This document shows positions 3 to 12,732 of a stretch of DNA of 49,451 nucleotides, piece by piece. Under the pieces are notes generated by a model, which worked only from the letters and a program-made list of their open reading frames with translations, had not been told where the DNA came from and made no database searches. A program made the position numbers and the translations under genes. Positions within the stretch are counted from its first letter, which is position 1; every line of letters begins with the position of its first letter. Source of the DNA: a virus; IMG/VR virus record IMGVR_UViG_3300027976_003189; one strand, 5' to 3'.

Positions 3-1121
3 TGTTTCTCTCATTATAGATAATGTTTTTTCACAACGCTTTTCAGACATGGTTATAAAATTATCATATAAATCAATTCCAATGTATGATCTTCCACATT
101 TTAGAGCAACTTCTCCAGTAGTGCCAGAACCAGAAAAAGGATCAATAACTATTCCAGGTCTATAATTATTATGTCCACAATCTGTCCAGCCTTTTGTCTC
201 AGGTTTCTTTGGAACATATACCTTACCAGAATCGCACCTGCCACTAACTTCTTTACTTGTCTCAGGATTATAATCTTCAAAAGATGTATATTTCCCAAAA
301 ACTCGATTTGTTTTTTTAGATATCTGAGAACCATCCTCAAATAAATCTACTACTTCCGATTTTGCTATTTCTCGCTTTTCATCATATTCGATCATTTCGG
401 TAATACGCTCTCGGCAAAATCCGCATGTATCACAAACGAACATAGGGCATGTCATTACCACTGGACGTTCACACAATACGGAAGGATAAACAGCATAATG
501 CTTTTCCGTGGTCTGCCCCATATTGACCCGCCATACATTAGATAAGTTTCTACCATCTACGGACGTTTCAGATTCCATTAGAGAGGAAGGCAAATACCTT
601 CTTATATTAGGTATGGTTATTCTTGGGATTCTAACGGCACAAGTATCCGTCCAAGCATCTAAAGCACTTTTTGTTTTTACAAATCTGTATATTTGCTCGT
701 AAGAATTGCCATTTAATCTACTTGGAGCTGGCTCTATCATACAGCCACCCTCAGTAGATCCATCCACATTTGTTACCATCTTTGCCCAAATAACACTATC
801 TGCCAATTTCCAACCGCTTTCAACCATTGCGAAAGCAAATCTTTCTGGGATCATTAATAATTCATTGTCTGTTCCCCTAGTGTCACCTAGATTAACCCAG
901 ATGCTACCTTTCGGATGTAAATTAATGTTATTAAATACTTGAACTAAATTAGATATAAAAACATTGATATCTTTTTCTTTACCAATTTCGTTATCAGAAT
1001 CTCCATATTTTCTTTTCTTAAAATAAGGGGGAGATGTGACAACGCAATTAGCTACAGGTAGCGAATGAAGATTAACTCTAGAATCACCTTTGAGTATTTG
1101 ATATGTCAACTTGTCGAACAT
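3..1121 (-). CDS. beta-class N4C/N6A DNA methyltransferase with Cys-rich insertion (3'-partial, runs off window)
   Basis: Not in the ORF track; translated by hand from ATG at 1121, open to the window edge (373 codons). MFDKLTYQILKGDS...CVVTSPPYF (motif IV)...GSIWVNLGD...HYAVYPSVLCE...VIDPFSGSGTTGEVALKCGRSYIGIDL (motif I). Motif IV precedes motif I, which defines the beta class. Confidence 0.93.
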   Translation of the reverse strand, partial: MFDKLTYQILKGDSRVNLHSLPVANCVVTSPPYFKKRKYGDSDNEIGKEKDINVFISNLVQVFNNINLHPKGSIWVNLGDTRGTDNELLMIPERFAFAMVESGWKLADSVIWAKMVTNVDGSTEGGCMIEPAPSRLNGNSYEQIYRFVKTKSALDAWTDTCAVRIPRITIPNIRRYLPSSLMESETSVDGRNLSNVWRVNMGQTTEKHYAVYPSVLCERPVVMTCPMFVCDTCGFCRERITEMIEYDEKREIAKSEVVDLFEDGSQISKKTNRVFGKYTSFEDYNPETSKEVSGRCDSGKVYVPKKPETKGWTDCGHNNYRPGIVIDPFSGSGTTGEVALKCGRSYIGIDLYDNFITMSEKRCEKTLSIMRET

Positions 1122-1127
1122 AGCCAC

Positions 1128-1403
1128 CTATTTAGAACCATTATGCTTCGTAGGATCATACTTTACCCTATGCCCACTTCTAGTTCGTAAATATTTTGGC
1201 CTCATCTTCTTAATATAATCCGGGTCTTTTTGCCACACTTCGGCATTAACATTGACAAGCCCAGGTGGTGATGAATTAAAAAACGGTATTTTATCGCAAA
1301 CAGTTCCATCTTCCAAAATGAAAGGTTTATCACTATCACTAAAATTTCTGATTTCATCAAAAATTTCACCTGTTAATGGATTTTTATAGCTAAAAAGTGG
1401 CAT
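1128..1403 (-). CDS. small FmdB-like (zinc-ribbon-derived) protein lacking most Cys ligands
   Basis: MPLFSYKNPLTGEIFDEIR resembles the MP(I/L)YEYxCxxCGxxFE start of FmdB-family proteins, but only one Cys remains; in operon context. Confidence 0.55.
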   Translation of the reverse strand: MPLFSYKNPLTGEIFDEIRNFSDSDKPFILEDGTVCDKIPFFNSSPPGLVNVNAEVWQKDPDYIKKMRPKYLRTRSGHRVKYDPTKHNGSK

Positions 1404-1406
1404 AAT

Positions 1407-1622
1407 TTATTCCGAATATCCATCGCAATTTATCACAAACATACAATCATCACCTCTCTGAATAACGCGATGTTCACTTGTTATTCCGAGAGTACTTACT
1501 GCTTTAAACTGTATATTATTAGAACAATCTTTTGTTTTACACCTATCACATAATGGGAGTATTGGTCCTGATACGCCGATCAATAAATGAGAAATCGGTA
1601 TTGTCTTACATTGATATTTCAT
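1407..1622 (-). CDS. small Cys-rich hypothetical protein (putative Zn-binding)
   Basis: 71 aa with CDRC-x3-C and C-x4-C; start overlaps the upstream stop by 1 nt. Confidence 0.7.
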   Translation of the reverse strand: MKYQCKTIPISHLLIGVSGPILPLCDRCKTKDCSNNIQFKAVSTLGITSEHRVIQRGDDCMFVINCDGYSE

Positions 1623-2191
1623 TAGCTTCTTTTAACTTCGCTTCCACCAGACGACATTGCCTTTCTCTGCAATGCGGAAGTCTCTCCTCTGAAAACAGGT
1701 CTATTGATTTTTTCTGACTCCCCAATGGACTTTAAGGTTTGAGAAGTCTTATCTACCAATGCGGATATATTGGAAAAATTTTCAATTGGAGATATATCGG
1801 CCATTTGATCTTCGGTATATCCAGATACCCTTGGTGCATTTGGTGCATTTGGCACATTAGATCTTAAAATCTGAGGAGCAGGAAGTGTGCAAGTTCTAGG
1901 AGGAGCACTTCTCCCAAAAGAAGGATTCTGAAAAGAATCAGTCTTTTGTTGCGATATTTTTGTAACAACAGAAACTGACGAAGCAGATATGAGAGATTTT
2001 TGTCTCAAATAATCAGTAACATCTGAAAACAAACTAGCAGGGAAATTAAACCATTCAGATTTATTCTCTGATACTGAGATGGTTGGAAACCCATCAAGTA
2101 TATGATACTTAACCCATAGTCTAGTACCTGTTTCGCTAGAATCATATGGAAATTCTACGGTAACCTGAGTGTCATTATCTATTATTGGCAT
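1622..2191 (-). CDS. hypothetical protein (globular N-terminus, disordered Pro/Ser-rich C-terminus)
   Basis: 189-aa ORF in the minus-strand operon, with low-complexity PNAPNAP. Confidence 0.8.
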   Translation of the reverse strand: MPIIDNDTQVTVEFPYDSSETGTRLWVKYHILDGFPTISVSENKSEWFNFPASLFSDVTDYLRQKSLISASSVSVVTKISQQKTDSFQNPSFGRSAPPRTCTLPAPQILRSNVPNAPNAPRVSGYTEDQMADISPIENFSNISALVDKTSQTLKSIGESEKINRPVFRGETSALQRKAMSSGGSEVKRS

Positions 2192-2194
2192 ATT

Positions 2195-11426: not shown

Positions 11427-11484
11427 ATGATCCCAACCTGTGCTTAAAAAAGTAAATTTGTTAATCTAGATTTATTGAGAATTT

Positions 11485-11495
11485 TATTCTACCAA
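11485..11495 (-). promoter_or_regulatory. candidate extended -10 promoter TTGGTAGAATA
   Basis: TG-n-TAGAAT in the gap upstream of the 405-aa MTase; an identical 11-mer occurs at 16429-16439. Confidence 0.5.
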
Positions 11496-11557
11496 AAAAT
11501 AAAAGCACCATTCTAGTTGGAATTGTCTGATTTTGATAAAATTGCCCGTTTGTAGTG

Positions 11558-11578
11558 GTGAGATGTGAGATGTGAGAT
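11558..11578. repeat. 3 x 7-bp perfect tandem repeat GTGAGAT
   Basis: GTGAGATGTGAGATGTGAGAT in the 11427-11631 intergenic region. Confidence 0.9.
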
Positions 11579-11631
11579 ATGCACGAAATAAAGACAATAT
11601 TTATTCCTATTACCGTAGATTTTCATAGATT

Positions 11632-12732
11632 TTATCGAACTCCATTTTTACCCTCTTTAGATATTATTATATACTCTTTTGAATTATCCTTTAACACAGA
11701 TCTATATTTGTAGTCGTAGTCTAATTCCTCCACAATAATAGAATTTCTAAACTTCTTAATAGTAGATACTATATCTTCAATTGGACACCAGCTAGAATTA
11801 TTATAGCTAAGCACTAAATTCGGAATATACCTAGAAGCATCTAATAAACTCTCAAAATGCTGCTTATATCCCTTCTTTGAGGAGAACTTATCACACATAA
11901 ATTCTTGCTTTTTAAGACCATCAAAAACGAAAGATAAATATTCTTCAAAAAACTCATACATCTTAGCATAATCACTCTGGTCTCCACCATAAGGAGGATC
12001 TATATATGCCGTTTGTACATCTGGCTTTATACTTTGAAGATATACTTCGGCATCCATATTTGATATATGGCATTCAGGAGATGAAGTATCATAATCTATA
12101 CCATTCCATTCTAAATTAAATGACATTTCTTTTCCATCATTCCTGCTATGACTTAATCTATGATCTAACTTAGCCAAGACCTGACCGCTATTTAATCTCC
12201 CACCAACATAACAGTGCTTCATTATATGATATAGCATTGACATGCTTGACAAAATCTTCTTCGCTGAAGCGTCTTTTATCTTTTTTGATCCTGAAATAAA
12301 TCTATCAATTTTTTCAGCTTCAGTCGGAGTAAAGCGATCTTGATATCTGTCTCTAATAAATCTAACGTCATCGTCTCCATCATTAAAAATAGATTTTAAT
12401 TCATCACTTGATATGGAATTATCTAATAAAAATGAATAAGCATTAAAATATGGAAATAAAAGTAAGTCATTCGTATATACTTTGGAATTAAGCATTCTAA
12501 ATGCCGCAGACATAGAAGCACTACCGCAGAATAGATCCAAAATCGAATCAAAAGGAATATTATGCTTTGAAAAAGTCATAATAATACTAGATGCTATTTT
12601 TCTCTTATTACCAGTCCAGGGACTAGGAATAACTTTTAATTTCTCACCTATAACAGACATCTTGGAGGAAAGGGATTCCTCTGTTGTTATTGTATCAAAA
12701 TTAAATTCTACTTTACACAGAGGCTTCGCCAT
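11632..12732 (-). CDS. alpha-class (D12/Dam/FokI-like) N6-adenine DNA methyltransferase
   Basis: PWTGNKRK (X), ILDLFCGSASMS (I), YTNDL, AYIDPPY (IV), LSYNN, EYIII. ATG at 12732 preferred (track start 12741 is GTG). Confidence 0.92.
   Translation of the reverse strand: MAKPLCKVEFNFDTITTEESLSSKMSVIGEKLKVIPSPWTGNKRKIASSIIMTFSKHNIPFDSILDLFCGSASMSAAFRMLNSKVYTNDLLLFPYFNAYSFLLDNSISSDELKSIFNDGDDDVRFIRDRYQDRFTPTEAEKIDRFISGSKKIKDASAKKILSSMSMLYHIMKHCYVGGRLNSGQVLAKLDHRLSHSRNDGKEMSFNLEWNGIDYDTSSPECHISNMDAEVYLQSIKPDVQTAYIDPPYGGDQSDYAKMYEFFEEYLSFVFDGLKKQEFMCDKFSSKKGYKQHFESLLDASRYIPNLVLSYNNSSWCPIEDIVSTIKKFRNSIIVEELDYDYKYRSVLKDNSKEYIIISKEGKNGVR

Follow-up and report, generated by a model that had tools for sequence, protein, structure and literature searches.

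In a 49,451-nt stretch of DNA from an uncultured huge phage (IMG/VR record IMGVR_UViG_3300027976_003189, hereafter the window), a short peptide of the form [DS/E/N][L/I/M]F recurs on disordered termini, and in one case in an inserted loop, of replication and DNA-modification enzymes. Judged from sequence comparison, this peptide is most likely a real short linear docking motif, carried by the C-terminal half of the polymerase DnaE, at least four or five of seven DNA methyltransferases (MTases), the helicase DnaB, a dCMP deaminase, and two uncharacterised proteins. The presence of one peptide on many different enzymes, including the polymerase, points to a hub with a binding pocket, as in sliding clamps, and docking on a clamp was therefore ranked first among the possible functions. 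We regard it as the leading explanation, plausible but unproven, and our confidence in it is evenly balanced. The partner would most likely be a beta-type clamp, the first candidate being a divergent phage DnaN-like clamp and the second the clamp of the host, and binding of the peptide to it would couple methylation to replication.

The motifs known to bind the bacterial beta clamp, in the hydrophobic pocket between its domains II and III, are the Dalrymple pentapeptide QL[SD]LF and the hexapeptide QLxLxL/F, which occur on Pol II, Pol III alpha, Pol IV, Pol V, MutS, and Hda, among other proteins. The polymerase of the phage lies in locus L036, which matches the window with zero mismatches over 1127 compared bases and prolongs it leftwards by 10 kb, adding the remainder of MTase 1, a split DnaE with an intein, the dCMP deaminase, the two uncharacterised proteins, and an SSB-like gene. 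The C-terminal half of this DnaE ends in GIDPTQDLFG, with a Gln one place off the clamp consensus. As relatives we used 27 syntenic loci from related huge phages, which were reached through a DnaB-homologue alignment scan of viral contigs. Every complete DnaE C-terminus in these relatives carries [DSNQ][LMI]F followed by 0-5 residues (10/10, with 1.08 expected when the tails are shuffled). In G002, a complete relative of 461 kb, the DnaE tail KKGIESVDIFG is nearly identical over 11 residues to the tail of an MTase, KKGTESTNIFGD. The dCMP deaminase of the extension ends in EKDIFNE, and both uncharacterised proteins beside DnaE carry the peptide, the 113-aa one ending in VDEIFDSL and the 396-aa one starting with ..SKIDDIFNIW, where an N-terminal [ED][LI]F is kept throughout the family. 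DnaE itself is split into two genes (L036:12570-15188 and L036:16333-18276), with the dCMP deaminase and small genes between them. Its N-terminal part contains an intein in this genome (Hint and LAGLIDADG matches) and ends in nearly all relatives with a strongly conserved ..DD[LQ]GG[VI]DRY, which may join the two halves.

The seven MTases named in an earlier reading of the window (the original prediction) are real according to Pfam, comprising four N6_N4 enzymes, one Dam of family PF05869, one weak gamma-type enzyme, and one D12 enzyme. All the peptides quoted there were found at their coordinates on the minus strand (Table 1). They lie, as claimed, outside the catalytic cores, the Pfam domains ending before them and the tail of MTase 2 being disordered in its AlphaFold model. 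The count of six tagged MTases out of seven is also right for this genome, because the N6_N4 enzyme at 4888-5685 has no motif here.

Among the 45 proteins of the window and its left extension, 8 carry [DESNQT][LIM]F within their final 12 residues, compared with 3.2% of internal 12-residue segments (P ~9e-5). We give this enrichment little weight because the motif was chosen post hoc. Motif carriers are not significantly more frequent in the replication block (7/31) than elsewhere in the window (1/14). The conservation of the peptide in homologues is more telling. Of the three outcomes named in the original prediction as refuting it, two were thus looked for and did not occur, since the motif proved both enriched and conserved. 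Each tail was shuffled and, for the MTase 2 family, [LIM][FW] was scored in the last 10 residues. The motif is kept in 10 of 14 tails of the MTase 2 family, with 0.86 expected, and in 7 of 9 tails of the group formed by MTase 3 (3532-4368) and the enzyme at 4888-5685, with 0.67 expected; none of 20,000 shuffles attained the observed family counts. In this test, no enrichment was seen in nine of the ten families taken as controls from these loci, and the tenth (W_14691) scored through a different conserved terminus, R[IV]W. A similar picture emerged in G002, where 5 of 7 MTases carry [LIM]F in the last 13 residues, compared with 65 of 599 other open reading frames (ORFs; Fisher P 3e-4). The five motif-bearing enzymes span two classes and three loci, and a D12 MTase of G002, unrelated to that of the window, has the C-terminus ENDIFN.

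The position of the peptide was followed in each MTase. MTase 1 is cut by the window edge; its complete length in L036 is 382 aa, and its true C-terminus, ..GMNPFKSYS, is motif-free. Alignment revealed a Cys-rich insertion of ~100 aa (residues ~230-320) that bears the EVVDLFE loop, which is kept as RNSDLFVDD in its one orthologue, that of L001. This insertion, CPMFVCDTCGFC ... CGHNNY, resembles a zinc ribbon and is missing from the paralogue MTase 2. In the AlphaFold model of MTase 2, the fold stops at helix 247-258 and residues 267-285 have a predicted local distance difference test score (pLDDT) below 50. Motif A of this enzyme ([DS][LI]F[ED]) abuts the last helix, and motif B forms the extreme C-terminus past a charged, basic linker. 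Both positions are kept in 12 orthologues with linkers of differing length and sequence, and the tails of the orthologues (43-64% identity) cannot be aligned except at motifs A and B, the latter appearing as EEDLFNGI, HMDLFDLNG, ADLFNEQ, TNIFGD, or INLWE at the very end. An 85% identical homologue of MTase 3 ends in NMDLFQ. The enzyme at 4888-5685 was included in the system on account of its orthologues, which bear the motif in the terminal sequences TEDIFEERNV, HIDIFEGKK, TELFK, ADIFAGSSND, EEDLFANA, and EADLFE.

The three enzymes outside the N6_N4 family carry the peptide in other settings. The likely true start of Dam is the ATG at 4898, giving 177 aa as called in L036, and MIPNDLFE sits in its N-terminal extension of ~30 aa ahead of the core. 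In the gamma-like MTase, SKSLFD lies nine residues from the C-terminus. Neither Dam nor the gamma-like MTase has an orthologue among the related loci. For the D12 MTase, most of 14 orthologues have [IVL][DEN]F or [ST][DN][LM]F at residues ~6-25 (EIDFETG, HINFESG, TDLFDADDW, NDMFSTDDW, and SDLFAAQ, matching KVEFNF here), and none of these 14 has the motif at its C-terminus. The MTase tails are basic, and residues often follow the Phe.

MTase 3 allowed a comparison with cellular proteins, as it is 61-69% identical to chromosomal homologues of Candidatus Cloacimonas, Cylindrospermum, and Anaerolineae. Its homologues (61-85% identity, bacterial chromosomal ones included) yielded 78 distinct tails, of which 18 contain Q..[LIMV][FL] in the last 10 residues, with 0.85 expected, and a hydrophobic pair terminates 28, with 7.1 expected. 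Tails such as QQQVLF (of the Cloacimonas type), VSLQLF, KHSLF, TQLRLL, RQLSIL, and HQLTLLG fit the published clamp-binding consensus, Gln included. Because bacterial homologues already carry these canonical versions, the tail is not a phage invention and is partly inherited among the beta-class enzymes, and the idea in the original prediction that the phage itself had tagged its MTases needs correction to that extent. Motif A, too, occurs in bacterial homologues and is therefore ancestral within the N6_N4 family. The original prediction had also considered common descent an unlikely explanation, yet descent accounts in part for the presence of the peptide on all of the four beta-class enzymes that have it. 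The Gln has been lost in the phage versions, perhaps to suit a diverged clamp. The canonical QxxLF tails suggest that the same coupling of methylation to replication may operate in bacterial cells. MTase 3 is far nearer to cellular proteins than the other genes of the phage are, which suggests a recent exchange with bacteria.

A clamp was searched for in the relatives. Whole-record searches of five relatives with the DnaN models PF00712, PF02768, and TIGR00663 gave no match, nor did the gp45-type clamp model PF02916 in five relatives, two of them complete. A DnaX-like clamp loader was detected in relatives (PF13177, E ~1e-39), and the clamp was located solely through its adjacency to this loader, as a protein of 411-437 aa encoded two genes downstream. 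In a direct protein scan, the candidate of G002 gave weak collinear matches to the N-terminal and central domains of DnaN, and the family comprises 197 representatives at E <1e-30. The AlphaFold (AF2) model of the 411-aa protein has a pLDDT of 95.8 and was matched by Foldseek to bacterial beta clamps at E ~1e-24, with template modelling (TM) scores of 0.79/0.88 against E. coli beta at ~14% identity. Alignment of the family with E. coli DnaN by hhalign gave a probability of 96% and paired the most conserved block of the family, RF.AG.G.RFAV, with RTVATDGHRLAV of E. coli DnaN, a segment that we take to be part of the peptide-binding pocket of DnaN. The family is found in 4/4 complete relatives and in 9/11 related records, the two records without it being fragments ~29% and ~6% complete. 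The original prediction had looked to a phage sliding clamp, and a divergent beta-type clamp with a DnaX-like loader is encoded by all four complete relatives. A complex prediction of the clamp family with residues 236-280 of the MTase 2 orthologue of G002 scored 0.27 (mark 0.32), had no controls, and counts neither way. The 396-aa protein downstream of DnaE was also considered as a clamp and rejected, having no supporting matches. Between the loader and clamp genes lies a gene for a protein of ~245 aa (L043:11290-12039 in G002 and L044:8173-8895 in G001), which in G002 has a weak match to sigma-70 region 4 and recalls clamp-coupled late transcription in T4.

The proposed system can be compared with known clamp-client pairs. 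Like the bacterial clients, the phage proteins carry, in a disordered end or loop, a short peptide that finishes in [SD]-L-F, the replicative polymerase and unrelated enzymes have this peptide in common (TQDLFG at the end of DnaE), the beta-type clamp encoded by the relatives has a G.R[FL]A block that is conserved, and the full consensus appears on the bacterial homologues of one MTase. Unlike them, the phage peptides have no Gln at position 1, and the phage-encoded clamp family is only ~14% identical to bacterial DnaN. As with gp43, gp33, and gp55 of T4 and RB69, a polymerase and non-polymerase proteins have a terminal hydrophobic peptide in common, which serves docking on gp45 there and is proposed to do so on a clamp here; the clamp, however, is of the DnaN type rather than gp45, and D[LI]F takes the place of LDFL.

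In the full-text literature searched, DNA MTases, dCMP deaminase, and DnaB are not described as clamp clients, the pair of DNMT1 and PCNA is the sole methyltransferase-clamp pair, and a clamp-binding motif is reported for no MTase of bacteria or phages. Animal DNMT1 binds PCNA by a PIP box and new DNA is methylated behind the fork (PMC9690074). Both cases would tether a DNA methyltransferase to a sliding clamp, but the animal system uses the PCNA trimer, a QxxLxxFF peptide, and another enzyme family, whereas here several MTases of differing specificity would use one clamp. What is new here, as a partly supported variant of the docking peptides of clamp clients, would be the MTase clients and the phage-private clamp.

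Under clamp docking, the clamp would be loaded at primer ends and remain on the newly synthesised duplex, where the polymerase and the MTases would alternate in its hydrophobic pocket through their common peptide. Nascent phage DNA would then be methylated at many different sites directly behind the fork, ahead of cutting by host restriction. The original prediction had proposed such clamp-tethered methylation; the motif is enriched, conserved, and present on DnaE, and relatives encode a clamp that the peptide is predicted to bind. If the tails bind the clamp, anti-restriction methylation in the phage would be physically coupled to replication, as with animal DNMT1, which would account for the timely protection of each new genome copy in a phage that has many orphan methyltransferases. 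Methyltransferases, and perhaps dCMP deaminase, would join the clients of bacterial-type clamps, and the phage would provide a natural diverged clamp-peptide pair, maybe orthogonal to that of its host. A broader proposal, which we put forward tentatively and at rather less than even confidence, joins several claims: that in bacteria and phages alike DNA MTases are generally beta-clamp clients, a class so far unrecognised; that this clade has a private version with its own divergent clamp and loader and a Gln-less D[LI]F peptide; and that the clients of this version are the polymerase, as many as six MTases from three structural classes, the dCMP deaminase, DnaB, and the two uncharacterised proteins. 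On this view all the DNA-modification enzymes of the phage would travel with the replication fork.

Several observations weigh against docking on a clamp. The canonical Gln of QL[SD]LF is missing from the phage tails, which retain no more than its [DS][LI]F half. The phage's own clamp gene, whose presence we infer from the relatives, lies outside both the window and the 10-kb extension. The orthologues behind the conservation counts are non-independent samples, and across G002 the loose motif stands at 21 of 606 ORF C-termini, compared with 2.2% of internal and 3.3% of N-terminal segments. This genome-wide enrichment is weak, and the signal therefore rests on particular families, so that we make no claim for phage termini generally. 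Motif A of MTase 2, abutting the last helix, could pack onto the enzyme itself. The tails of most DnaB homologues resemble those of T7 gp4 and SSB rather than clamp motifs, as detailed below. Finally, the same tripeptide also occurs in folded contexts: the counter-example that the original prediction had raised against itself, the end NDLFSIT of a glycosyltransferase family 4 (GT4)-type enzyme, is present and aligns in orthologues inside a conserved NWEKI...Y.D[IL]F / DW..IV..Y..[VI]F block, so that it probably belongs to a folded C-terminal helix and lies outside the system.

The peptide might instead dock on another hub of the replisome, such as DnaE, a tau-like part of the loader, a phage SSB, or a scaffold of the replication compartment, which we consider unlikely. 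DnaB bears on this question. Among its 19 nearest homologues, [LIMV]F lies within the final 8 residues of 12 (1.8 expected), in line with the original prediction, which had counted the DnaB tail as a clamp motif. The family as a whole makes this less clear, since the tails of 118 homologues are acidic stretches (mean net charge of the last 20 residues, +5.7 acidic) that mostly end in an aromatic or hydrophobic residue, and an aromatic falls within the last 3 residues in 70 of them (25.5 expected). Acidic tails with a terminal aromatic are known from T7 gp4, gp2.5, and SSB (DDDIPF); the tails of T7 gp4 and gp2.5 bind the polymerase, and the DnaB tail may likewise be a polymerase-binding tail of the gp4 kind, a contact to which it points as much as to the clamp. 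An SSB-like protein of L002 that ends in DDAGTEW and the motif on the 113-aa and 396-aa proteins adjoining DnaE would also suit a different hub. In contrast to the T7 and SSB tails, however, the DnaB tail of the window is net basic, like the MTase tails, though it is Phe-terminated, and the MTases usually have 0-8 residues after the Phe, whereas SSB-type tails require a free terminal Phe. DnaE itself bears the motif and is therefore unlikely to be the common receptor, and the bacterial homologues of MTase 3 show the canonical clamp consensus with its Gln.

An intramolecular role, in which the MTase peptides fold back for stability, autoinhibition, or dimerisation and were inherited within the N6_N4 family, with the likeness to DnaE and DnaB a coincidence, seems improbable to us. 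It would fit the fixed position of motif A directly behind the last helix in all N6_N4 orthologues, the ancestral standing of this motif as seen from bacterial homologues, and the folded helix of the GT4 enzyme in which the same tripeptide is found. Motif B is harder to reconcile with it, lying 15-30 variable residues further on in a tail of low model confidence. The D12 enzymes, moreover, carry the peptide at either end (the N-terminus in the family of the window and the C-terminus, ENDIFN, in G002), the gamma-like MTase, a single sequence, has a C-terminal peptide as well, and in G002 an MTase tail all but repeats the 11 residues of the DnaE tail.

The peptide could also be a sorting or turnover signal, such as a degron or a tag for packaging into a capsid or compartment, rather than a replisome tether. 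The existence of a second, unrelated C-terminal tag (..RFEILDL) common to many small ORFs in some relatives speaks for such signals. We nevertheless hold this to be very improbable, as the peptide is carried by the polymerase and other enzymes of replication and DNA modification, with no virion protein among them, and no structural gene in 22020-49451 has a C-terminal motif. Chance or composition, that is, a loose tripeptide in an AT-rich genome where D, L, I, and F abound, was already disfavoured and is scarcely credible: the post hoc choice of the motif, its weak enrichment across G002, and the lack of a significant difference between the replication block and the rest would allow it, but shuffling yields ~1 where 7-10 are observed (0/20,000 shuffles attaining the observed counts), the control families of these loci, with one exception in ten, show no enrichment, and every complete DnaE C-terminus examined has the motif.

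The window has a GC content of 33% and all its genes lie on the minus strand. Pfam scans define positions 3-16400 as a block of replication and DNA-modification genes, and the coordinates of the features discussed here are collected in Table 1.

Table 1. Positions of the MTases, their peptides, and other annotated genes in the window.
Feature	Position	Strand	Remarks
MTase 1, N6_N4 beta class	3..1127	-	PF01555, E 1.8e-27; C-terminus truncated by window edge
EVVDLFE	339-347	-	MTase 1 loop
MTase 2, N6_N4	2647..3504	-	Pfam domain, residues 29-253; two motif copies (A, B)
KTDLFE	2707-2715	-	MTase 2 motif A
ETDIFA (C-terminal)	2653-2661	-	MTase 2 motif B
MTase 3, N6_N4	3532..4368	-	Pfam domain, residues 28-268 of 278; ends in NMDLF (3535-3543)
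Phage Dam, PF05869	4365..4916	-	Pfam core, residues 35-161
MIPNDLFE	4878-4886	-	Dam N-terminal extension
MTase, N6_N4, motif-free here	4888..5685	-	Pfam; motif present in orthologues
Primase zinc-ribbon protein	5675-6277	-	
DnaB-type replicative helicase	6277..7764	-	Pfam DnaB_C; basic linker, then terminal NSIFSF (6286-6294)
IF3 homologue	8610-9122	-	IF3_N + IF3_C, full length
Gamma-like MTase	10209..11426	-	Weak Eco57I / N6_Mtase matches; SKSLFD 10233-10241
D12 (alpha-class) MTase	11632..12741	-	PF02086; N-terminal KVEFNF 12697-12714
Superfamily 2 (SF2) helicase	12713-14269	-	
GT4-type glycosyltransferase	18612..19715	-	Ends in NDLFSIT (18624-18632)

Other conserved features were noted around this block. 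The IF3 homologue lies between DnaB and MTases and is conserved at this place in 18 loci of related huge phages. In L010, L013, and L018, 21 small ORFs lying within 10 kb of DnaB end exactly in [RK][FWLM]x[ILM]LDL, for example DRFEILDL, and a 281-aa protein of the window (9119-9964, minus strand) and its orthologues have a related [RK]F.[FY]L end, here SRFTFLRRN. Two further families of the minus strand have invariant ends across the clade, ..[DN]R[IV]W in the 371-aa protein (14691-15806) and ..YDPTKH[C] in the 91-aa protein (1128-1403). Many replication genes are inflated in the relatives L021, L022, L008, L012, L016, and L009, with DnaB at 942-972 aa, the SF2 helicase at 900-1426 aa, and MTase 2 orthologues at 646-666 aa. 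Some DnaB homologues have intein Pfam matches, and inteins appear rife in the replication module of the relatives. G002 also encodes an anti-Pycsar Apyc1-like protein of the metallo-beta-lactamase fold (L056:9554-10357; PF23023, E 2e-17).

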